From Thermodesulfovibrionales bacterium (lineage in GTDB: Bacteria > Nitrospirota > Thermodesulfovibrionia > Thermodesulfovibrionales > UBA6898), in NCBI GenBank assembly GCA_044450345.1, contig JBIOIY010000003.1, forward strand, positions 64,001 through 128,000: a stretch of DNA of 64,000 nucleotides, read 5' to 3'. A program made the position numbers and the translations under genes. Numbering within the stretch: the first letter of the stretch is position 1; each line of letters starts with the position of its first letter. This document shows, piece after piece, positions 28,955 to 40,110 of this stretch. The notes beneath the pieces were generated by a model, which made no database searches, was not told the DNA's origin, and was given only the letters and a program-made list of their open reading frames with translations.

Positions 28955-30007
28955 ATGCTTTTTAAAGGTAAGGGTTCAATCGGATTAGATCTTGGTTCGA
29001 GCTATATCAAGACGGTAAAACTCAAAGAATCCAAGGGAAGCTACGAACTCGAGCTCTTTGACCTCTATCCTCTTCCTCCTGAACTGATCGTCGACGGCTC
29101 CATCATCGATTCTATCAGACTCGTAGATGCCATTAAGGACATGGTCAGGAAGGCCGGAGTAAAAACAAAGGACACGGCCATATCCATTTCCGGGCATTCC
29201 TCGGTTATCATCAAAAGGATCTCTCTACCCGAGATGTCCGAAGAAGACCTTTCCGAATCGATAAAGTTCGAGGCCGAACAATATGTCCCATTCGATATAG
29301 AGGACGTCAACCTCGATTTCCAGATAATTGGACCGAAAGAGGAGCCGGGACAGATGGATGTAATCCTCGTGGCCGTCAAGAAAGACATCATCAATGAATA
29401 TATATCAGTGATAAAGGAAGCCGGTCTTAATCCGATCATAGTGGATATTGACGCCTTTGCGCTCGAAAATATGTACGGCATCAACTACGAGATCGAGCCC
29501 GGAAAAAATGTTGCGTTGCTTAATATCGGGGCGAGTACTATCAACATGAGTATACTGAAAGGCGGTATCTCCGTATTCACAAGAGACAGCTCCCTTGGAA
29601 GCAATCTGCATAGCGAGGCACTGCAAAGGGAATATAACATCAGCTATGAAAATGCCGAAAAACTTAAGAGGGGCGAGCCGGTCGAGAATGTGTCGTCTGA
29701 AGATGCCGCCGCTGTGATAGAATCTGCCTCCGAAGAGATACTCAGCGAGATCATAAGATCCTTCGACTACTACCGAAGCACCACGATGCACGAAGACATC
29801 TCCGAGGTGATATTCAGCGGTGGATGTGCCCTCCTCAGTAATATGTCGTCAATGATTACGGAGAAGACCGGCATCGAGACGAGGGTCGCTGAACCTTTCA
29901 GGAACATCAAGATACCGAAGAAATTCGACGAGACCACCATTCATGAAATTGCTCCTGTCATGGCTATTGCGGTTGGACTGGCATTAAGAAGGCCCGGTGA
30001 CCGATGA
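28955..30007 (+). CDS. pilM: Type IV pilus assembly protein PilM
   Basis: IGLDLGSSYIK actin-like motif, EAEQYVPF, LNIGAST, SGG. Confidence 0.95.
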   Translation: MLFKGKGSIGLDLGSSYIKTVKLKESKGSYELELFDLYPLPPELIVDGSIIDSIRLVDAIKDMVRKAGVKTKDTAISISGHSSVIIKRISLPEMSEEDLSESIKFEAEQYVPFDIEDVNLDFQIIGPKEEPGQMDVILVAVKKDIINEYISVIKEAGLNPIIVDIDAFALENMYGINYEIEPGKNVALLNIGASTINMSILKGGISVFTRDSSLGSNLHSEALQREYNISYENAEKLKRGEPVENVSSEDAAAVIESASEEILSEIIRSFDYYRSTTMHEDISEVIFSGGCALLSNMSSMITEKTGIETRVAEPFRNIKIPKKFDETTIHEIAPVMAIAVGLALRRPGDR

Positions 30008-30543
30008 TAAAAGTCAACCTTCTGCCCGTTAAAAAGAAAAAGAAGGCCAAGCCTTTGCCTGCTTTTCTCCTTGTTACCATCGGCGTTGCTCTTGCTGCGG
30101 TCGCGATCGTCATTTACCTAAACTTCTCTTTTAAGGGCCGCGTGAACGCAAGAAAGGCCCAGGTGGCTGATAATGAGAGAAGGCTCGGGGAGCTCGCAAG
30201 GAAGATAAAGGCAGTTGACGACTACGAAGCGCTAAACGCCGATTTCAAGAAACGCAAGGGGATTATCGAGGAACTCGGCAAGAACAAATCGCTGCCGTTC
30301 AAGATACTCGATGAGATTAGCAGGCTTTTGTCAGATGGCGTATGGCTGACGCAAATGAGCATAACCGGCAACGACATAGCATTGTCCTGCACAGGGTTCA
30401 ATAATACCGACGTGGTAAATTTTGTGAATAGCCTGAAGGGGTCTTCCCTTTTGACAGACATATATCTGCAGGAGTCCATCCAGGCGAGCGCATCGGGTTA
30501 TTCGGTTTATAACTTTAGAATCAGCTGTAAGGTGAAATCCTGA
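30004..30543 (+). CDS. pilN: Type IV pilus assembly protein PilN
   Basis: KVNLLP N-terminal motif, TM, GVWLT; operon order. Confidence 0.92.
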   Translation: MIKVNLLPVKKKKKAKPLPAFLLVTIGVALAAVAIVIYLNFSFKGRVNARKAQVADNERRLGELARKIKAVDDYEALNADFKKRKGIIEELGKNKSLPFKILDEISRLLSDGVWLTQMSITGNDIALSCTGFNNTDVVNFVNSLKGSSLLTDIYLQESIQASASGYSVYNFRISCKVKS

Positions 30544-30544
30544 T

Positions 30545-31138
30545 ATGGCAGTGAAATTAGATGTTAAGAATCTGCCCATTTATTTAAAAGCGATTATCGC
30601 TGTTCTTCCCGCCGTGATCATTCTTGTGGCGGGGATGGTCCTTTTTGTGTCCCCGCAGCAGAAAGAGATCAAGGCCCTCGATGCGAAGATAGACGATCAA
30701 AACAATAAAATAGCAACAGGCCAAGCCAAGGCGGCCAGGCTTGATACCTTGAAGCAGGAAAATGAAAAACTGCTGAATAGGTTGAATGAATTGAAAGAAC
30801 AACTGCCTGAAGAAAAGGAGATTTCGAGCCTTTTGAAACAGATCTCCGACCTTTCTATCTCAGCGGGACTCGAGATAAAATCCTGGAAGCCGGGAGCCAG
30901 GAAGATACACTCAAGCGGAATTGTATCTGAAATACCGGTTGCCGTCTCCGCGAGTGGAACCTATCACGATTTCGCCGGATTTCTGAGCAGCCTGACGAAA
31001 CTGAACAGGATCGTCAATATTACAGATATAAAGCTCGGTTCTCCAACGCCTACAAAAGGCATGGCCAACCTTCAGATAAGTTTTACCGCCACCACTTTCT
31101 CATCTGTAAGCGAGAAAGACAAGGAGGCGAAGAAATAA
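30545..31138 (+). CDS. pilO: Type IV pilus assembly protein PilO
   Basis: TM, coiled coil, LPEEKEISSLL, GTYHDF..F, RIVNI. Confidence 0.92.
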   Translation: MAVKLDVKNLPIYLKAIIAVLPAVIILVAGMVLFVSPQQKEIKALDAKIDDQNNKIATGQAKAARLDTLKQENEKLLNRLNELKEQLPEEKEISSLLKQISDLSISAGLEIKSWKPGARKIHSSGIVSEIPVAVSASGTYHDFAGFLSSLTKLNRIVNITDIKLGSPTPTKGMANLQISFTATTFSSVSEKDKEAKK

Positions 31139-31666
31139 ATGGCAAGAATGGTTATAGATTTCAAGAGGTCGCTTGTGGGTCTATTTGGGGTGGCATTCAT
31201 TGTCCTGGCAGGATGTGAGGGCGATCCTTCCCATCAGAAGCCGGCTTTAGAAAAGCCTAAACCTGCAGCCTCCGCTCCCTCGCTGGCAGTGAAAGAAGAA
31301 CCCAAGGCCGAAAAAGAGGTGTATGTCTATGAGCAGAAGGGGAGAAGAGACCCCTTCATGTCATTGCTCCAAATCAGCAAGGAAAAACCGAAAAGGGCGG
31401 CAGGGAAGAGGCCTGTGGAGAACTTCGATGTCGACGAGATAAAACTGGTTGCCATTTTGTGGGACACCAAACAGTATTATGCCCTCATAATGCTCCCCGA
31501 CAATAAATCCTACACGATCAGAAAAGGGATGACACTCGGGCTTTACGGCGGAAAGGTTGAGGATATTACAAGGGACAAGGTGCTGATTCGGGAGCAGGTA
31601 AAAGACTACCGGGGGCAGCTGAAAACTAAAGATACCATATTGAAACTCCGCAAGGAGGGGGAATGA
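31139..31666 (+). CDS. pilP: Type IV pilus assembly lipoprotein PilP
   Basis: LAGC lipobox, GRRDPF motif. Confidence 0.9.
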   Translation: MARMVIDFKRSLVGLFGVAFIVLAGCEGDPSHQKPALEKPKPAASAPSLAVKEEPKAEKEVYVYEQKGRRDPFMSLLQISKEKPKRAAGKRPVENFDVDEIKLVAILWDTKQYYALIMLPDNKSYTIRKGMTLGLYGGKVEDITRDKVLIREQVKDYRGQLKTKDTILKLRKEGE

Positions 31667-33897
31667 TGAAAAAAACTCTGATATCAAAATTTCTCATGTC
31701 ATTTATTTTATTGACATTAGTCCTCGGCTGCGCGACAAAGGCCAGGACCAAGGAGACTTCCGAGACCGATGAGTTCCCGGTACTTGCCGAGATCAAACAG
31801 CAGGAAAACGGCATCTCGTTCATCGGCAGCAAGAACTTTATTTATACGCTGTACACAGGAAACGACCCTTACAAGGTAACCATCGACATCCCGGATATGC
31901 GACTGGGGAATTTTAAGGAGAAGATCGTTTGGGACAAGGCAGGCATTTCGGAGATCCTTCCCCAGCAACTCGACACTCCAAAGCCGTCTATAAGGCTCGA
32001 TATTACATTGCAGAGCCCTGCTGCGGTCGTCCCTCTCTACAGGGACAATACGCTGACCCTTTTGACCAAACCTGAAGAACCGGTCACCCTGACCCAGGAA
32101 AAAACTGAAGAAAAGGTGGAGTCGAAAGAGACGACCGACGTTGCAGCCGCCGTGAGTCCGCCGGAGCCTGCAGCGGAATCAAAGCCCTCTGAAACGACGG
32201 CACCTGAAGTAAAAGAAGCAGAGGCCCCTGAAAAAAAATCTGCCGACAGCGGCGCTGCGCTGTCAAGGGCGAAGTCTATTGACCGCATCGAGCTCAAGAA
32301 ATCGGCAGCGGCGCTGAAGATATTGATAATCGGCGACGGGACCATGACGCCCAATGTCTTTCCCATCGATGAAAGAATAGTTATAGATATCCCCAATGTG
32401 TCAACGCATGCCTCACTTCCTTCAAGTGTCGTGTCGCCTTTAAAGGGTATCAGGATCGGCAAGCACAGGGACAAGGTTAGACTTGTGCTGGACCTCAGGG
32501 AAAAGACGGCTTTCGATGTTTCAGCAGTAGGAAATACCATAGAAGTTTTGCTGAAGAGCAAGGAGCGTCCAGTTGTCCAGTTTGAGCACAAGGCGGTCCG
32601 AAAAGAGATTGCCCTGAAAGAACTTTCATCCAAAGAGGCAGTCCAAATAGAGGCGCCGCCTCCTCTTGTACAGGAGGCCAAGGCAGAGGGGAGATATAGG
32701 GGGAAAAAGATATCGCTCGATTTCCAGGATGCCGAGGTAGGCCCTATTTTCAGACTTCTTGCCGACGTCAATGACTACAATCTGGTGCTGGACCCTGCGG
32801 TGAAGGGCAAGATCACGATCAAGCTTATGAACGTCCCCTGGGACCAGGCCCTCGATATTATTCTCAATCAGACGCATCTCAACTACCGCGTAGACGGAAA
32901 CATATTGTGGATCGCACCTGTCACTGTTTTTGACCAGATTGCCAGTGAAAGGGCGAAGTCGAAGGAGACGGAAGAGAAGTCCGAGGAACTGGTGCAGGAG
33001 GTCTTGAGGGTGAACTATGCGGCTGCCGCCGAAGTGCAGACTGCCATTAACAGCGGGAAACTGCTCAGCACACGCGGCACTATCACCCCGGACGCCAGGA
33101 TGAACACCCTTATCATCAAGGATACCCAGAAGAGCATCGAAAACATAAAAGAACTTGTGAAGATAATGGACCTCGCGAAGCCCCAGGTTATGATAGAGGC
33201 GAAGCTCGTCGAGGTGGGCACGACATACAGCGAATCGCTCGGCATACGGTGGGGAGGCAGTTTCTCTTCGCAGACTTTCCCCAGTAGCCTCCTAGGCAAT
33301 TTCTCGGTCAATACGCCGACGGTGAGCGCCGGGCCTTCAACGTCAAATGCCGGAGGCGCCATGAATTTGACCTTGGGGCATGCAAACAGCTTGAGCGTAA
33401 ACTTGTCGCTTTCGGCGCTTGAATCCATAGGCAAGTCCAAGACGTTGTCGAACCCGAAGATATTGACGATGGACAACGAGTCCGCAACCATCCAGCAGGG
33501 TACTACATTTTTTATCCCGACGGTAAGCCAGTCAGGTACCCAGACCCAGTCGCAGACTGCAACTCTGAGCCTGACAGTGACCCCCAAGATCACGCCTGAC
33601 GGTTATATCCAACTGAAGGTCAATGCTACCGACAACAGTCTTCAGCCGGGGACGGCCGGGGCCACGGCGGTAGTCAACACGAAGAGCCTCACGACCCAGG
33701 CGCTTGTCAAGAATGGAGAGACCCTGGTGATAGGAGGCATTTACAGGATGGACGATAGCGAAACCAGTGATGCCGTACCCGTCCTCGGCAGGATACCGGG
33801 ACTCGGCTGGCTATTTAAGACCAAGGACCGCGTAGGGCCGAACATCAAGGAACTGCTCATATTTATTACACCGATCATAGTCAGCCAGCCTATGTAA
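31663..33897 (+). CDS. pilQ: Type IV pilus secretin PilQ
   Basis: GKKISLDFQDA, VPWDQALD, PQVMIEAKLVE, GETLVIGGIY, VPVLGRIPGLGWLFK, ELLIFITP; AMIN-like N-domains. Confidence 0.96.
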   Translation: MMKKTLISKFLMSFILLTLVLGCATKARTKETSETDEFPVLAEIKQQENGISFIGSKNFIYTLYTGNDPYKVTIDIPDMRLGNFKEKIVWDKAGISEILPQQLDTPKPSIRLDITLQSPAAVVPLYRDNTLTLLTKPEEPVTLTQEKTEEKVESKETTDVAAAVSPPEPAAESKPSETTAPEVKEAEAPEKKSADSGAALSRAKSIDRIELKKSAAALKILIIGDGTMTPNVFPIDERIVIDIPNVSTHASLPSSVVSPLKGIRIGKHRDKVRLVLDLREKTAFDVSAVGNTIEVLLKSKERPVVQFEHKAVRKEIALKELSSKEAVQIEAPPPLVQEAKAEGRYRGKKISLDFQDAEVGPIFRLLADVNDYNLVLDPAVKGKITIKLMNVPWDQALDIILNQTHLNYRVDGNILWIAPVTVFDQIASERAKSKETEEKSEELVQEVLRVNYAAAAEVQTAINSGKLLSTRGTITPDARMNTLIIKDTQKSIENIKELVKIMDLAKPQVMIEAKLVEVGTTYSESLGIRWGGSFSSQTFPSSLLGNFSVNTPTVSAGPSTSNAGGAMNLTLGHANSLSVNLSLSALESIGKSKTLSNPKILTMDNESATIQQGTTFFIPTVSQSGTQTQSQTATLSLTVTPKITPDGYIQLKVNATDNSLQPGTAGATAVVNTKSLTTQALVKNGETLVIGGIYRMDDSETSDAVPVLGRIPGLGWLFKTKDRVGPNIKELLIFITPIIVSQPM

Positions 33898-33951: not shown

Positions 33952-34425
33952 ATGAAGAACCATATAATGCTGCTGTTGTGTGTAATCGTGTTATCGGGTT
34001 GCGGGGCCAGAGGCGGAAGCGCACCTCCTGGTTCTACGATAACTATAGGGTCTTTTGATAGTGTGACAAACGCAAATACGACGAAACAGCGCGACAGTCA
34101 AACAGTGCAGGTCATCATAAAATCGGGTGGCAATGGAGTAAACAATGCAAATATCGATATTTCATTCGATTATACGTCGCCACCCGTTAAGACTGTGACA
34201 AATCCTGATGGATCCACTACGAGAACATTCCCTGATCCGGCAAGCGTTGTTACGTTGTGCGGCGGCGCCCAGATCTTAAACGCAACCGTCCAGGCGAAGA
34301 CCGACGACTGGGGTGTTTATTACCTATGCATTGAATATGATAACGGGGGTGGGCTCGCTTACGCGGGGAACGTAAAGGTCTTGAGCGGCGATCAGTCGGT
34401 TTCGACTGCGTTGACCGTCCAATAG
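33952..34425 (+). CDS. Small beta-rich (Ig-like) lipoprotein of unknown function
   Basis: LSGC lipobox, GAGGAGG RBS, Thr/Ser/Gly-rich beta pattern. Confidence 0.75.
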   Translation: MKNHIMLLLCVIVLSGCGARGGSAPPGSTITIGSFDSVTNANTTKQRDSQTVQVIIKSGGNGVNNANIDISFDYTSPPVKTVTNPDGSTTRTFPDPASVVTLCGGAQILNATVQAKTDDWGVYYLCIEYDNGGGLAYAGNVKVLSGDQSVSTALTVQ

Positions 34426-34475
34426 GCTGTTGGGATGGGTGTCTTGAAATTGGATATTTTCCAGGAGGATCATTT

Positions 34476-37400
34476 ATGAAAATTATGAGGATTACGTTCT
34501 GCCTCTTCTTGATAGCTTACCTGTTCGGCTGTTCAGGAGAGCCGACCCAGACAGGCGGCGCCAGCAGGGGAGCGGCAAAGGTCCTGGCAGATGACCTGCA
34601 GATAACCTCGGACCCGAACGACCAGACCCAGCCAAATGTTGCATACGATACGGTCAATAAGAGATACCTTGTCGTCTGGACTGACTACAGAAACGTGAAC
34701 ACGAGTTGTTCCGGGACCGCCCTCTGCGGCACTGACATCTTCGGCAAGTTCTGTACCGGCTCCGGGACCGGGACAGACACGACCATGACTTGCGGGAGCG
34801 AGTTCCTCATTTCGAATATAACAGGGGGCCCCGTGCCGGGCAATCAATCTCAGCCAAAGGTCGCGTTCAACAGCCAAAACCAGAATTATCTTGTGGTCTG
34901 GACCGATTCACGGAGCGGGGCAAACGGTCAGATCTTCGGTCAGCTCATGACAAAGGACGGGACCTTCTCGGGGGACAACTTTGCCATCTCTACCATTACC
35001 GCAGGCGTGGACATTAACCAGTTTGAGCCTGACGTCATATACGACGCTGTGACCAACAACTTCGTGGTGGCGTGGGTCGATGTGACTGTCGCGGACACAA
35101 ATAATCAGATGGTCCTCAGGGGCGGGGGCTGCTTTAACACTCAGAACGTGACGTTTATCCCTCTGCCCCAGGCTGATAACAACATGGTCAGGACGGCAGA
35201 GGTGAGTCCGACCGGCGCGGTATCAAACAGAAAGAACGCCTCTGCGCTTCTGGCGACAGACCCTGTGCATGATACGGGGACCAACTCTTTCACCGGCACA
35301 TGGTCTGTGCAGTTCAACGAGGCAAAGCCGAAGCTAATCTATAGCAGCATCACGGGAGATTATTTCGTCGGCTGGAGCGGCATGAACCATTCGGTAACCT
35401 TCAATATGGACTATATCCCGGGAGCCCTGGGGAACGTGTTTAAGGTCTTTAACGGGACGGGTTCTGTACCCAATCCGGCGCCTCCCCCCGCAAACCTCCC
35501 GGCCTGGCGAGCGACCGATACAGCCACTATTTCAGGAGCGGTGACGACGATAGTCGCAGCGACCGCAACGAAGAGTGACGGAACCGCGGCGACCGGGCTC
35601 ACTTTCACGGGCTTTGGAACGACCTCGCTCAAGATCACGATCAATGCTGTATCAAATGTCATCGGCGACACGAACCCGCTCACGATAACGGTCACCTATG
35701 ATTTTCCTAATGTCTGTGAATATAAGGTGCAGACATTCACCTCAACGGACAAGGACGCCGGCCTTCCCAAGGTGAAGTTCAGAAAGGGGTCCGGACTCGG
35801 ACTCTTCCAGGACTTCAGCTTCGGCACAAATGCGACTGCGCTCGCATTGTCGACGGACCCAAATACTAACCGCGCGCTGATCGCATGGGAAGAGAATACC
35901 GCGACCGGAAAGGACATACTGGGACAGCTCGTTGATCTTAACAATTTCGTGTCTTACGGCAACGGCATAACCATATCCAACGCCCCCGGCGATCAGTCAT
36001 CTCCTGCGGTCTCGTATGACAACGCCAACCAAAGGTTTCTTGTTGTATGGGAAGACGCGAGGAACCAGAGCGCAAATATCTCCAACATCGACATCTTCAG
36101 CCAGTTCGTCGACCCGCAGGGCAATTTAAGCGGCGCAAACGCCCCTGTGACGGTTGCGCCGGGCAACCAGCTTGCCCCTGCCCTGGCCTTCGGGGATGTC
36201 GACTTCAGAAAATTCCTTGTTGTCTGGGCGGACGGCCGCCAGCCGAGCAATGCAGACATCTTCGGCCAGTTGATGGAATTTTCATTGTCATCTCAGCTCT
36301 TGATAGAGGACGGAGCCGGGAACCCGATCTTTAACAGCGCGATCGATTTCGGGAACTTCCCGATCGGCCTGACCGGCGGGGTGCTCAACTCTACGACGTT
36401 ACCGTTTAAGATCTGCAATAACGGTAATACCCAGCTCACCATAAACAGCATGAGCCAGCCGGACGCCCCGTTCTCGATCACTACGCCGATCCCGGTTACC
36501 ATAAGCCCCGGCGTTTGTTCCGACATGGCAGTCCAGTTTGCGCCTATAGCTGCGGGTTCTTTTGCAGGGAATTCCTCGAACAATTTCAAGACGACGATTG
36601 ATTCAAGCGGCGGAAAGGTGACGCTCTATTTCAGCGGAAGCGGAACAGGTACCCAAACGTTAAGAGTTCTTACCACAAGTCTTCCCGATGGCGACACATT
36701 GACTGCTTATAACCAGCCTCTCCTGGGATTCGGCGGTGTCTTCCCCTTCACCTGGAGCGTAAGCGCGGGGACCCTTCCCCCTGGGATGACAATAGATTCT
36801 ACCTCCGGCCGTATAAGCGGCCAGCCGACCGCATCCGGATCCTTCACCTTTACGGTGAGGGTTACTGATAATGGCGGACATACCGCAACGAGAGAGCTTA
36901 CGATTAATGTGAGCGTACTTACGATTACGAATATAAATACGACATTGAAGCAGTGGACAGTAGGACAGGAATACGGAACCCCCCCTGTCGAACAGATAAC
37001 CGCTGCGGGCGGCGCAGCGCCTTATACCTGGAGCATAAGCGGAGGCAATTTGCCGAACGGGCTCTCGATAGACCCCTCAACGGGCAGGATTTTCGGCGTG
37101 CCGAGCCAGAGCGGGCAGTTCCTGTTTACGGTGAAGGTCACCGAAAGCGGCGGACAGATCGCAACAAAGAGTTTCATGATAAGCATTAACTCCGCACCGT
37201 CCATTCAGACAACCAGCCTTCCTGCCGGGAGAAGCGGAATTGAGTATCAACAGACACTGAAGGAAGTTGGCGGAACGCCGACCATTACTTGGGCTATTGG
37301 CTCGGGGTCACTGCCCCCGGGACTATCGATCGATACTGCGACCGGGATAATAAGCGGGACGCCGACAAGTGAAAGTAAAAACAGTTTTACGATAACGGCA

Positions 37401-37613
37401 ACCGACGCTGCGGGGGCCTCGGTCTCCAAGGACCTTGCAATTGAGGTCACTGCTGCCGGTGCTGGTGGCGGAGGAGCGGCCTCAAATTCCGGAGGCGGGT
37501 GTTCTATCGGGAGAAAGCAGAACGGGCCGACACAGGTTGCGGACGCCCTAGTAATGCTGGCGCCGCTGTTTGCGATAATCGCGCTCAGGAATTTCAGGCG
37601 GAAGAAAAAATAG
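34476..37613 (+). CDS. Large surface protein: propeller-like repeats, ASH/choice-of-anchor-D-like domain, three putative-Ig (He_PIG) repeats, Cys-containing C-terminal sorting signal
   Basis: LFGC lipobox; repeats (D/N)QxxPxVxY..LVVW.D.R; G.LP.G..ID..TG.I.G.P repeats; tail GGGCSIG..D..TM..RRKKK. Confidence 0.85.
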   Translation: MKIMRITFCLFLIAYLFGCSGEPTQTGGASRGAAKVLADDLQITSDPNDQTQPNVAYDTVNKRYLVVWTDYRNVNTSCSGTALCGTDIFGKFCTGSGTGTDTTMTCGSEFLISNITGGPVPGNQSQPKVAFNSQNQNYLVVWTDSRSGANGQIFGQLMTKDGTFSGDNFAISTITAGVDINQFEPDVIYDAVTNNFVVAWVDVTVADTNNQMVLRGGGCFNTQNVTFIPLPQADNNMVRTAEVSPTGAVSNRKNASALLATDPVHDTGTNSFTGTWSVQFNEAKPKLIYSSITGDYFVGWSGMNHSVTFNMDYIPGALGNVFKVFNGTGSVPNPAPPPANLPAWRATDTATISGAVTTIVAATATKSDGTAATGLTFTGFGTTSLKITINAVSNVIGDTNPLTITVTYDFPNVCEYKVQTFTSTDKDAGLPKVKFRKGSGLGLFQDFSFGTNATALALSTDPNTNRALIAWEENTATGKDILGQLVDLNNFVSYGNGITISNAPGDQSSPAVSYDNANQRFLVVWEDARNQSANISNIDIFSQFVDPQGNLSGANAPVTVAPGNQLAPALAFGDVDFRKFLVVWADGRQPSNADIFGQLMEFSLSSQLLIEDGAGNPIFNSAIDFGNFPIGLTGGVLNSTTLPFKICNNGNTQLTINSMSQPDAPFSITTPIPVTISPGVCSDMAVQFAPIAAGSFAGNSSNNFKTTIDSSGGKVTLYFSGSGTGTQTLRVLTTSLPDGDTLTAYNQPLLGFGGVFPFTWSVSAGTLPPGMTIDSTSGRISGQPTASGSFTFTVRVTDNGGHTATRELTINVSVLTITNINTTLKQWTVGQEYGTPPVEQITAAGGAAPYTWSISGGNLPNGLSIDPSTGRIFGVPSQSGQFLFTVKVTESGGQIATKSFMISINSAPSIQTTSLPAGRSGIEYQQTLKEVGGTPTITWAIGSGSLPPGLSIDTATGIISGTPTSESKNSFTITATDAAGASVSKDLAIEVTAAGAGGGGAASNSGGGCSIGRKQNGPTQVADALVMLAPLFAIIALRNFRRKKK

Positions 37614-37641
37614 TCTCTGTATACAAAGTGATGCAAATCTC

Positions 37642-37669
37642 AAAGAGAGGGGCTATAGCCCCTCTCTTT
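37642..37669. terminator. Perfect 28-bp palindrome, probable terminator
   Basis: AAAGAGAGGGGCTATAGCCCCTCTCTTT. Confidence 0.75.
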
Positions 37670-37691
37670 ATTTGTTCTTGAGGAAGATTTA

Positions 37692-38234
37692 TTGGACGTG
37701 AAGAAAAAACCCCTGCTCGCGTATGCCATACTTCTCATGCTGGTTTTTTCAGCGCATGCCTTTCAGCTGCGCTTCTTCGATTATCTTGTCCCCATTTATC
37801 TTCTGGCAGTCCCGGTGGTCTTGAAGAGCAGGACAAATATCGGTTTTTCGATGAGGCATATTCTCCTTGGCCTGCTTGTGTCAATCATAGTTCTCTTGCC
37901 GTTCTTTGCGGTCTTTCCGCCGGCGAAAAAATTTGCAGCCCCGGAGCTGGGTGCGGCCCTGTTCCAGCTTCTCGGCGTTGCCTTTCCGGAGGAGGTTTTT
38001 TTCAGGGGGTTCCTGCAAGAAGCGTTCGGCAATAATCTCAGGGGCGCTGTGGTGGTGAGTCTCCTGTTTGCGGGGGCACACCTTCCGGGATTGTTTTTCT
38101 ACGGCGACCTCTATGCACTGCTGACATTCTTTCCTTCCCTCATCATGGGCCTCCTCTACATGCGTACGTCAAACGTTGCACCCTCGACGATCTTTCACTT
38201 CTTCTCAAATATCATGTACCTGGGGTCTTTGTGA
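37692..38234 (+). CDS. CPBP (CAAX/Abi) family glutamic intramembrane protease, probable sorting enzyme (MrtJ/myxosortase-like)
   Basis: EEVFFRG, FAGAH, HFFSN motifs in a hydrophobic 180-aa protein; start TTG 37692 or GTG 37698. Confidence 0.88.
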   Translation: MDVKKKPLLAYAILLMLVFSAHAFQLRFFDYLVPIYLLAVPVVLKSRTNIGFSMRHILLGLLVSIIVLLPFFAVFPPAKKFAAPELGAALFQLLGVAFPEEVFFRGFLQEAFGNNLRGAVVVSLLFAGAHLPGLFFYGDLYALLTFFPSLIMGLLYMRTSNVAPSTIFHFFSNIMYLGSL

Positions 38235-38298
38235 TATACTCTAAACTGGTTTGAAGACTGGAATCCGGCATGTTCACTTTGCAATTGAGGAGTTACGA

Positions 38299-40110
38299 AT
38301 GAAGAAAATCATTCTTGTACTGGTGACATTACTTTTGGCTTCGTGCGGGAATGAGAAGACCGCAGTCTTGTCTTCTGATGAAGGCAGAACCGCTGCGATA
38401 GAAAAAACGGCCCCGATAGTGTCGATGCAGTCAATCCTTGCCGGTGCGGAAAAGGGCAACTACAGGGAAGGTGAAATTATTGTCAAGCTCAAACCCGGTG
38501 TCCGCAATGCGTCTTCACTGGGTGCGCATCTGGCATTGGGGGCGGCGGTACTCCGGAGGCTCTCTCTGTTAAATGCAGATCATGTTAAACTGCCTGCTGG
38601 TGTGACGGTAAGAGAGGCGATCATACGGTATATGCAGGACCCCGACGTCGAATACGCCGAACCGAATTATGTAAGGTCGGCCCGTTCTACCGTGCCGAAC
38701 GATCCGCTTTTTCCGTTGCAGTGGGCCCTCCAGAATACCCAGGGTTCGAACATTAGAATGCCCTCTGCATGGGACATTATCACCGGCAACAGGGGACTCG
38801 TCATCGCGGTTGTCGACTCCGGGGTAGACTATACCCACCCTGATCTTGCCGGCAATATGTGGGCCAACCCAGGCGAACCCAACTGCTCCTCTGCGAACGA
38901 CAACGACCATGATGGATATGTTGCCGACTGCAGGGGATGGAATTTTGTGAGCGATAATAATAACCCGATGGATGACGACGGACACGGCACGCATGTGAGC
39001 GGCACGATAGGCGCAGCAGGGAATAACAACCTCGGTGTTGCAGGGGTGATGTGGGAAGTGAAAATCATGCCTTTGAAGATCCTCGACAACAACGGGAACG
39101 GTACGGTGGCGGACGAGGTAGCTGCCATTCAGTACGCCATTACGAAAGGTGCAAAAATAATAAATGCCAGCTTTGCCGGGGACCAATTTTCGAACGCGGA
39201 ATTCGATGCGATCACTGCGGCAAATGCGGCCGGTATTCTGTTCGTGACCGCTGCAGGCAACGGGAATAACAATGCGATTGGGAGCGACAACGACACATTG
39301 CCGGTCTATCCCGGAAATTATAACCTTCCAAATATTATTTCGGTGGCAGCAACGGACCAGAATGACAATCTGGCCTCATTCAGCAACTTCGGCCCCGATA
39401 CAGTGCACGTTGCCGCCCCGGGGGTGTTGATCCTGAGCACCGTCCCCCCGAGCTTGAGCTTTTCGTTTTGCGGAAGCTCGCCTCTTATCGGTTATGAATA
39501 TTGCGACGGCACTTCGATGTCCACACCTCATGTTACGGGACTTGCAGGTCTCATATCAAGCTACTACGCCGGTCTGACGCCATCGCAGTTGCGGGCGATG
39601 ATCATGAGGTATGTCGATACGCTTCCGGCACTTCGGGGGGCCGTCAAGAGCGGGGGCAGGATAAACGCGTATAAGACTGTGTCGGCCCTGCTGGCCCCAT
39701 CCGGACTCTCTGCAAATGCACAATCTTCGACCAAGATAGCATTGACATGGAACGACAACGCCACAGGGGAGGATGGATACAAGATTGAGAGGGAGGCGCC
39801 TGGCGGAGACTTTGTCGAGATCGCTGAAACCGGACCTGACGTTACGACCTTTACCGACAGCGGACTCAATCCCGTGAATGCGTATACATACAGGGTGCGC
39901 GCCTTCAACACGATCCCCGTTGATTCAGGGTATTCCAATGAGGCGTCGGCCACGACCTTGTCAGGTCCCGGCCCTTCATCCGGAGGGGGTGGGGGAGGCT
40001 GTTCAGTGCTGAGAAAGACGCATCGACCTTCAGAGGGGGACGTCTTACTGGTCCTGATGCCCATACTTGCGGCCGCGGCATTGTATCGCCGCAGGCGAAA
40101 GAAAAAATAG
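38299..40110 (+). CDS. S8 subtilisin-family serine protease lipoprotein with FN3 domain and C-terminal sorting signal
   Basis: LASC lipobox; AVVDSG, HGTHVSG, GTSMSTPHV triad; LTWNDN..YTYRVRA FN3; tail GGGCSVL..D..TM..RRRRKKK. Confidence 0.92.
   Translation: MKKIILVLVTLLLASCGNEKTAVLSSDEGRTAAIEKTAPIVSMQSILAGAEKGNYREGEIIVKLKPGVRNASSLGAHLALGAAVLRRLSLLNADHVKLPAGVTVREAIIRYMQDPDVEYAEPNYVRSARSTVPNDPLFPLQWALQNTQGSNIRMPSAWDIITGNRGLVIAVVDSGVDYTHPDLAGNMWANPGEPNCSSANDNDHDGYVADCRGWNFVSDNNNPMDDDGHGTHVSGTIGAAGNNNLGVAGVMWEVKIMPLKILDNNGNGTVADEVAAIQYAITKGAKIINASFAGDQFSNAEFDAITAANAAGILFVTAAGNGNNNAIGSDNDTLPVYPGNYNLPNIISVAATDQNDNLASFSNFGPDTVHVAAPGVLILSTVPPSLSFSFCGSSPLIGYEYCDGTSMSTPHVTGLAGLISSYYAGLTPSQLRAMIMRYVDTLPALRGAVKSGGRINAYKTVSALLAPSGLSANAQSSTKIALTWNDNATGEDGYKIEREAPGGDFVEIAETGPDVTTFTDSGLNPVNAYTYRVRAFNTIPVDSGYSNEASATTLSGPGPSSGGGGGGCSVLRKTHRPSEGDVLLVLMPILAAAALYRRRRKKK

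Follow-up and report, generated by a model that had tools for sequence, protein, structure and literature searches.

A candidate myxosortase-type CPBP protease and its Cys-containing C-terminal tail in Thermodesulfovibrionia

Introduction

MrtX, the only prokaryotic CPBP sorting enzyme tested so far, removes the MYXO-CTERM tail in a Cys-dependent manner, is required for display at the surface and is also active in Escherichia coli; lipidation of MYXO-CTERM proteins and the site of the cut are put forward as proposals in the same study (excerpts of Guo et al., PMC11980579). A second tail, JDVT-CTERM, is defined by a nearly invariant Asp-Pro nine residues after its Cys, in a preprint whose main text makes no mention of Nitrospirota, Dadabacteria, CFI or lipoproteins (Haft, bioRxiv 10.1101/2023.06.07.544157). 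Here we describe a locus in a 64,000-nucleotide stretch of a Thermodesulfovibrionales genome (contig JBIOIY010000003.1, positions 64,001 to 128,000; hereafter the window), in which a CPBP protease gene lies between the genes for two predicted lipoproteins, cargo 1 and cargo 2, that share a short C-terminal tail containing a single Cys. The protease and the tail are probably partners in a dedicated sorting system of the myxosortase type; it belongs to Thermodesulfovibrionia, has a sister form in Dadabacteria and lies outside current models.

Results

Two unrelated proteins with the same tail

The locus comprises the following features.

34476..37613, + strand: cargo 1, a 1,045-residue predicted lipoprotein with a C-terminal Cys tail (open reading frame, profile matches and predicted structure)
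34476..34532, + strand: lipoprotein signal of cargo 1, its lipobox ending at Cys19 (from the sequence)
37491..37613, + strand: sorting tail A, the end of cargo 1, with Cys1009 at 37500-37502
37642..37669, + strand: putative intrinsic-terminator-like hairpin of 12 pairs, 7 of them G-C (pattern match)
37698..38234, + strand: Mrt-like CPBP glutamic intramembrane protease, predicted to have 7 transmembrane (TM) helices and its N-terminus inside
38299..40110, + strand: cargo 2, an S8 subtilisin-type lipoprotein (lipobox, prodomain and catalytic motifs)
39982..40110, + strand: sorting tail B, the end of cargo 2, with its Cys at 40000-40002

The longest open reading frames (ORFs), all on the + strand, span 34476-37613 (1,045 residues), 37692-38234 (180 residues) and 38251-40110 (619 residues). 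Judged by orthologue N-termini and Shine-Dalgarno-like sites, the protease probably starts at GTG 37698 (178 residues) rather than at the TTG at 37692 that opens its longest ORF, and the S8 protein at ATG 38299 (603 residues) rather than at TTG 38251. The ORF ends, the two tails and the intact motifs of the CPBP protease agree exactly with a preliminary description of this DNA. The same gene order is found on a 9.6-kb contig of an independent run covering 34000-39657, which excludes an assembly artefact.

The bodies of the two cargo proteins are unrelated (best BLAST E-value 0.095), yet they end alike. Tail A consists of a Gly run, Cys1009, a 13-residue spacer, Asp at position +14 from the Cys and Pro at +21, a TM helix and a basic end, and tail B of six Gly, Cys, Asp at +13, Pro at +20, a TM helix and a basic end. 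Aligned from the Cys to the end, the two score 73, a value reached by none of 5,000 shuffles (maximum 42), and the runner-up among the C-termini of the 3,668 genome ORFs of at least 150 residues scored 41. A hydrophobicity scan together with profile searches returned these two tails as the total for the genome.

Across 70 non-redundant tails the core of the signal is a Gly run, the Cys, Ser (67 tails), Ile or Val (67) and often Gly (49), although the count for the +1 residue is partly built in, because the extraction pattern required G-C-[SAT]. An Asp, Asn or Glu follows 11-15 residues past the Cys, with Pro seven residues further on, in 63 of the 70, before the TM segment and basic end. The Cys is invariant in all 52 aligned tails, and a second Cys occurs in none of the 70. 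Thus, as in the systems delineated by Haft, the signal is tripartite, has an invariant Cys and is borne by unrelated proteins with signal peptides. The carriers include S8 lipoproteins, the repeat protein of the window, diheme choice-of-anchor U proteins and several non-S8 proteins of Dadabacteria. The tail pattern quoted in the preliminary description holds for the family in its Gly run, Cys, Ser and Ile/Val, whereas its R-K and P-(T/S)-(Q/E) elements, which had been fitted to two sequences, are not family-wide.

The protease and its predicted topology

The gene between the two cargo genes had been described as a CPBP protease with intact EExxxR, FxxxH and HxxxN motifs, and the assignment is borne out. 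The protein scores 62.7 bits on PF02517 (cut-off 22.4), and no other PF02517 match was found in the genome; its motifs, E100-E101-x3-R105, F126-x3-H130 and H169-x3-N173, are invariant in 20 of 20 aligned orthologues. The predicted structure is a seven-helix protein with a predicted local distance difference test (pLDDT) value of 93.5, and the best fold matches, MmRce1 (4CAD) and SpdC (6U0O), were returned with a probability of 1.00 and an E-value of about 5e-3.

Loop charges assign the N-terminus, the loop before TM3 (3.3 Lys/Arg), the TM4-5 loop and the TM6-7 loop to the inside, and the C-terminus and the TM5-6 loop to the outside; the same charge bias is seen in 30 proteins that pass the Mrt_core or MrtS model. 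In MmRce1 both termini are outside and the cavity faces the cytosol, with Arg145 as its seal (excerpts of PMC12067869). The charge counts suggest that the protease is inverted relative to MmRce1, and since its TM4 would run opposite to that of MmRce1, the cavity should face the periplasm. Such an orientation fits the tail, whose Cys would lie on the periplasmic side. A predicted complex of protease and tail (score 0.12, mark 0.32) was weighed for neither side.

Co-occurrence and adjacency

In 301 genomes of at least 85% completeness drawn from the class Thermodesulfovibrionia, the protease was found in 90 and the tail in 80; both occur together in 78 and neither occurs in 209, while 12 genomes have the protease only and 2 the tail only. 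Inspection reduces these discordant sets from 12 and 2 to 5 and 1. In seven of the 12 protease-only genomes an S8 protein ends in a divergent version of the Gly-Cys-TM-basic tail, with a frameshift in the Gly run in one case; of the two that have only the tail, one (G151) encodes a diverged protease adjoining its tail gene and the other (G298) is a real exception. The comparison of tail carriers with the CPBP clade that had been suggested at the outset therefore comes out largely, but not wholly, in favour of the pair. In a set of 41 relatives the protease was detected in 20 and the tail in 21 (E-value below 1e-5), and in 251 genomes searched across the phylum all 16 matches fell inside the order of the host.

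A tail lies within 6 kb at 49 of 80 protease loci. For the 31 loci that lack one nearby, 29 genomes were searched whole and 26 carry tails elsewhere (best E-value at most 4.1e-4; Nitrospirota 14 of 16, Dadabacteria 12 of 13), which answers the worry that the profile had been trained on neighbours of the protease; the remaining two loci (G024 and G031) also belong to genomes with tails elsewhere. Co-occurrence with, and adjacency to, one narrow CPBP clade thus characterize this tail, if less strictly than in Haft's four systems. Comparative genomics makes the pairing of enzyme and tail very likely. The preliminary proposal that the protease processes the Cys tail, and that the tail is a lineage-specific CTERM class, accordingly gains backing from co-occurrence, adjacency and kinship to Mrt enzymes, though processing itself is predicted from these genomic patterns.

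The Dadabacteria sister clade of the protease adjoins glycosyltransferase-like genes (L136-L150, L171-L185), and these genomes hold 1-7 unlinked tails each, with a consensus of their own; this protease looks like a housekeeping form.

Scores on named models

Comparison with existing model pairs, also suggested in the preliminary description, returned no matched pair: the protease lies under every Mrt cut-off, and tail B alone marginally passes JDVT-CTERM. The window protease scores 71.6 of 130 bits on MrtS, 53.2 of 100 on Mrt_core and 43.6 of 75 on MrtJ. All 18 clade members scanned (window protein included) and all nine more distant proteins scanned fall below every Mrt cut-off, the proteases reaching 56-76 bits on MrtS (NF040589, cut-off 130). 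Their nearest outside relatives include proteins above the Mrt_core, MrtS and MrtP cut-offs. In a quick tree of 102 rows, none of which passes the MrtJ cut-off, the proteases of Nitrospirota and Dadabacteria group together on a single branch (SH-aLRT, an approximate likelihood-ratio support value, of 95), apart from the rows that pass Mrt_core or MrtS; rows titled Thermodesulfobacteriota or 'uncultured' were taken as Dadabacteria by their position in this tree.

It could be argued that the pair is a divergent branch of JDVT-CTERM/MrtJ, in which case the mechanism would be the same and only the claim to a separate pair would fall. Tail B indeed scores 27.1 and 27.7 bits on the JDVT-CTERM model (NF033191, cut-off 27), 15 of 24 tails match that model at E-values up to 1, short-spacer tails of other families reach 22-25 bits, one of them with an Asp-Pro, and the protease resembles its JDVT counterpart in being dedicated, adjacent and accompanied by 1-3 cargo proteins per genome. 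(With the E-value limit relaxed to 10, matches appear in 12 of 14 control genomes as well, and the model has no diagnostic value at that level.) However, the cut-off is passed in only 1 of 41 genomes, that of the host, and tail A gives no match; none of 70 and none of 115 tails has an Asp-Pro at Cys+9, a single divergent tail having one at +12, and the Asp here stands at +11 to +14, not +9. The proteases, moreover, score 38-52 bits on MrtJ (NF033192, cut-off 75) in all 18 clade members and 33-52 over all those scanned, MrtJ ranks under MrtS or Mrt_core in all 27, and the MrtJ-leaning proteins (55-69 bits, sub-threshold) mostly occupy another branch. A place within JDVT-CTERM/MrtJ is thus improbable, perhaps a one-in-ten matter, and we retain the separate sorting pair as the better reading.

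Exchange of the tail with CFI-box-CTERM

Homologues of both cargo proteins end in other ways. Of 120 homologues of cargo 1, among whose matches are Geobacteraceae names, 107 end in CFI-box-CTERM, seven in the short tail and six in neither. Ten protease-negative genomes among the 41 relatives have an S8 match; in the eight fetched (the incomplete G007 and one other were left out) a CFI-box ends seven of the eight S8 homologues, three of which lie between gspF and gspG. As in Haft's systems, therefore, cargo homologues carry another signal or none. In a tree of S8 proteins (39 rows, 4 of 43 having been dropped at motif trimming) the tail type changes at least twice, two CFI-tailed proteins being sister to four short-tailed ones with an SH-aLRT of 100. 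Protease and CFI-box occur together in 12 of the 301 genomes against 25 expected, six of the 12 being in one genus, and kin are not independent in this count; one genome (G037) has six CFI-box proteins and no PF02517 gene was found in it. In the host genome CFI-box (NF041770) gave 0 matches.

The tail of cargo 1 has a recent history of its own. In close relatives a second S8 protein occupies the slot upstream of the protease, and its tail (P0390) is identical to that of cargo 1 at 35 of 37 positions. DNA likeness to these relatives starts at the Gly run and continues through the hairpin into the protease gene, and a contig from run X6 matches 37490-37675 with 3 differences, its upstream sequence being unlike. 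By these three lines of comparison, the tail of cargo 1 was evidently acquired from an S8 gene, with the Gly run as the site of recombination. The occurrence of one tail on two unrelated bodies, to which the preliminary description had drawn attention, is thus confirmed as regards the bodies but does not reflect independent convergence. Comparison of the cargo families shows the tail to be a portable module, swapped at the Gly run and alternating with CFI-box-CTERM. The short tail was also considered as a deleted form of the CFI-box; this has no profile support, as no homology between the two profiles was found beyond the Gly-Cys start and the TM-basic end (HHalign probability 6% or less).

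Because the same cargo is found with either tail, the tail has changed at least twice, the two systems share 12 genomes rather than 25 and G037 has the CFI-box alone, we tentatively raise the possibility, doubtful as it is at present, that the short tail and its protease directly take the place of CFI-box-CTERM. If true, the CFI-box, itself a widespread orphan tail, would be a Cys-anchoring signal that leads to an identical product with no CPBP enzyme involved, by self-processing or through another cutter, and some surface proteins would be lipidated at both ends, the S8 proteins changing anchor on shedding their prodomain. A literature search covering few subscription journals found no published account of the CFI-box or of the present pair.

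Two further loci bear on the architecture of these tails. At L195:4079-6862 (G027:C4) an S8 protein with an internal CFI-box and TM segment is in frame with a GspG pseudopilin in a 928-residue open frame, either a real fusion or the result of a lost stop codon, and at L235:1032-3279 (G202:C16) an S8 tail is out of frame past the Gly run, which looks like slippage in a Gly-coding run or an assembly error.

The prevalence of S8 carriers might suggest another role for the protease, that of an accessory to S8 lipoproteins, either an LnsB-like acylation helper or a clean-up enzyme, with the tail as a plain anchor. Most carriers are indeed S8 lipoproteins adjoining the protease, and the CPBP-like LnsB serves lipoprotein N-acylation in Staphylococcus aureus (excerpts of PMC7387801). 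LnsB, however, is without the catalytic motifs that are intact here, and the host genome has Lnt. S8 homologues in genomes lacking the protease, three of them with a lipobox by eye, carry the CFI-box instead, one genome (G032) combines the protease with a tailed repeat protein and gives no S8 match, and Dadabacteria hold the protease clade with unlinked carriers that are not S8 proteins. A plain anchor, finally, would not retain an invariant Cys. An accessory role is thus very improbable beside that of a sorting enzyme.

Cargo proteins and a proposed route

Both window cargo proteins open with a lipoprotein signal, a feature absent from the preliminary description. The N-terminal region of cargo 1 is predicted to be all-beta and beta-propeller-like with insertions (pLDDT 89), and is followed by a HYDIN/VesB Ig domain, three He_PIG Ig repeats and the Cys tail. 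The closest fold matches, at 6-11% identity, are propellers of the sialidase type, a likeness of fold only, and sialidase activity is not claimed. Cargo 2 combines its lipobox with a fervidolysin-like prodomain, a catalytic domain with Asp/His/Ser motifs, an fn3 domain and the Cys tail. Tailed diheme-like proteins with a choice-of-anchor U domain have ordinary signal peptides (L152:5279-6514, L153:3987-5297) and are possible surface cytochromes sorted by this route. The lipobox pattern is also present in 95 of the 120 homologues of cargo 1.

The sorting route that we propose has four steps. After export, the cargo would stay in the inner membrane through its tail helix, with the basic end inside and the Cys in the periplasm. 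A housekeeping enzyme, for example Lgt, would then attach a lipid to the Cys, a step that we favour by a small margin from the MYXO-CTERM work, which is also the basis for regarding the Cys as the presumed anchoring residue. The CPBP protease would take in the Cys and spacer, aided in recognition by the Asp...Pro stretch of the tail helix, and cut at or soon after the Cys. The freed protein would finally pass through the type II secretion system (T2SS) to the surface, which we hold to be somewhat better supported than the lipid step.

The same cut might instead leave no C-terminal lipid, the Cys serving recognition and the cargo being kept by its N-terminal anchor or secreted. An anchor already exists, as the lipobox pattern is present in 58 of 63 full-length carriers and in 80 of 86 database carriers of at least 550 residues; a survey of Lgt in 41 genomes found no dedicated lipid transferase tracking the protease (1-3 matches per genome in 38 of the 41), and the excerpts of Guo et al. 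(PMC11980579) leave room for 'no modification needed'. The lipobox count is, however, dominated by one S8 family, and at least four carriers without a lipobox, two diheme proteins and two S8s, retain the Cys tail. Subtilisin prodomains are removed by self-cleavage, so the mature S8 protein would be parted from its N-terminal anchor and would depend on a C-terminal one. MmRce1-type enzymes, furthermore, act on a lipidated Cys (excerpts of PMC12067869). We regard cleavage with no C-terminal lipid as unlikely, if the least unlikely of the three alternatives, and keep a lipidated Cys in the proposed route.

Export and lipidation genes

The host genome has a complete gspC-N T2SS operon, two full-length Lgt genes and Lnt, the operon and the Lgt genes being on other contigs. 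Within 6 kb of the protease at 67 Nitrospirota loci, T2SS genes were found at 12, pil genes at 9 and aro genes at 42. PilQ was considered as the export route and dropped, the full gspC-N operon being present and pil genes lying near only 9 of the 67 loci. At L226:6040-6735 (G202:C14) the T2SS operon itself contains the clade protease gene, which lies in the same orientation between gspD and gspE. A T2SS operon lies between a 2,020-residue CFI-box repeat protein and a short-tailed S8 at L220:17654-19996 (G298:C2), possibly a snapshot of protease loss or replacement.

In the host genome, cytochrome-like genes and two large lipoproteins adjoin the T2SS operon in divergent orientation (G000:C10:13109-19946) and are possible T2SS cargo. 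A 651-residue membrane protein whose C-terminal third contains a partial Lgt-like domain (G000:C61:11487-13442) is unlinked to the tail system and is missing from most protease-positive relatives. A protein with a C-terminal tail that we take to be IPTL-CTERM-like and an exosortase-family match lie on one contig (G000:C1:184390-185553 and C1:142728-143147), which suggests a second sorting system in this genome.

Genomic setting

Two neighbouring features complete the locus.

28955..33897, + strand: pilMNOPQ, the upstream context
33952..34425, + strand: a 157-residue Ig-like lipoprotein lacking the tail, between pilQ and cargo 1

In the host genus the cassette is bracketed by pilMNOPQ and a downstream aroC-aroK-aroB. 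In the slot after pilQ (window 33952-34425) relatives carry differing proteins of 157-567 residues, mostly lipoproteins. The hairpin between the cargo 1 gene and the protease gene is also present 3' of the upstream tail gene in three relatives. 'Self-contained', as the system had been called, is thus an overstatement: the hairpin intervenes, T2SS and Lgt genes are on other contigs and cargo is often unlinked.

Discussion

Several observations weigh against the sorting pair and route proposed here. Cleavage, lipid attachment and localization are all predictions for this clade, and in the predicted topology, which derives from charge counts, the loop before TM4 is rather basic (1.2-1.4 Lys/Arg) and fits poorly. 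In G298, 96% complete in 4 contigs, the T2SS operon still ends with a tailed S8 although the clade protease was not found; G007 (66% complete) is an extra tail-only relative whose tail gene runs off its contig; and 5 of the 90 protease-positive genomes, including G139 (100% complete) and G247 (96%), show no tail. Of the 72 collected tail carriers, 65 are S8 paralogues, often in one cassette with the protease, and as the genomes are kin as well, the counts overstate independence; Fisher tests on co-occurrence were for this reason not relied on. GspD, moreover, is above its cut-off in 34 of 41 genomes whether or not the protease is present, so the link to the T2SS is not specific, and no Lgt paralogue follows the protease in its distribution.

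The system extends the described Mrt/Cys-CTERM class to two more lineages and is not a new principle; new are the exchange with the CFI-box, the captured tail and, as predicted features, the double anchor and the inverted topology of the protease. The pair offers a minimal enzyme of 178 residues, the sole CPBP protein in its genome, with a defined signal of 35 residues, and because the Cys is set 11-14 residues from the helix, the cut site should be easier to map. CFI-box-CTERM can be approached directly through the natural tail swaps, and cargo with two anchors poses a testable question on T2SS export.

The pair appears to work like the Mrt systems while lying outside every named one. JDVT-CTERM/MrtJ (NF033191/NF033192) shares with it a single Cys, an Asp in or before the TM helix, a basic end, few cargo proteins per genome, a usually adjacent protease gene and a sporadic distribution. 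Here, however, there is no Asp-Pro, the spacer is longer, a Pro stands seven residues past the Asp, the protease is far under the MrtJ cut-off and two cargo genes often flank it, and JDVT-CTERM/MrtJ occurs in Pseudomonadota whereas this pair occurs in Nitrospirota and Dadabacteria. In Synerg-CTERM/MrtS (TIGR04564/NF040589) a Gly/Ser run likewise leads to one Cys, a Pro lies inside the TM helix and there is an association with the T2SS; indeed, of all the models MrtS gives the window protease its highest score. Synerg-CTERM, however, has no spacer between Cys and TM helix, where the spacer here is 11-14 residues, none of 24 tails matches TIGR04564 at E-values up to 1 (one Dadabacteria tail scores 19 of 22.5), and true MrtS rows sit on a different branch of the tree from the window clade. 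MYXO-CTERM with MrtX, MrtC and MrtP (TIGR03901; NF040914) is similar in its tripartite Cys tail, its 7-TM CPBP enzyme and an FFP-like motif in TM6. The tail described here differs in having no second Cys, an Asp and a Pro in the helix and lipoprotein cargo, and the number of cargo proteins is 1-3 rather than dozens; the window tails do not match TIGR03901, 4 of 24 tails do so at E-values up to 1, and one Dadabacteria tail passes marginally (20.9 against 20). GlyGly-CTERM (TIGR03501) matches 0 of 24 tails, and the best rhomboid reaches 44 of 84 bits on the rhombosortase model TIGR03902. CFI-box-CTERM (NF041770), finally, opens with the same Gly run and Cys, closes with a TM segment and basic cluster, and is found in T2SS operons and on both of the cargo families treated here, but it extends about 105 residues from its Cys, against about 34 for the short tail, and occurs without this protease clade.

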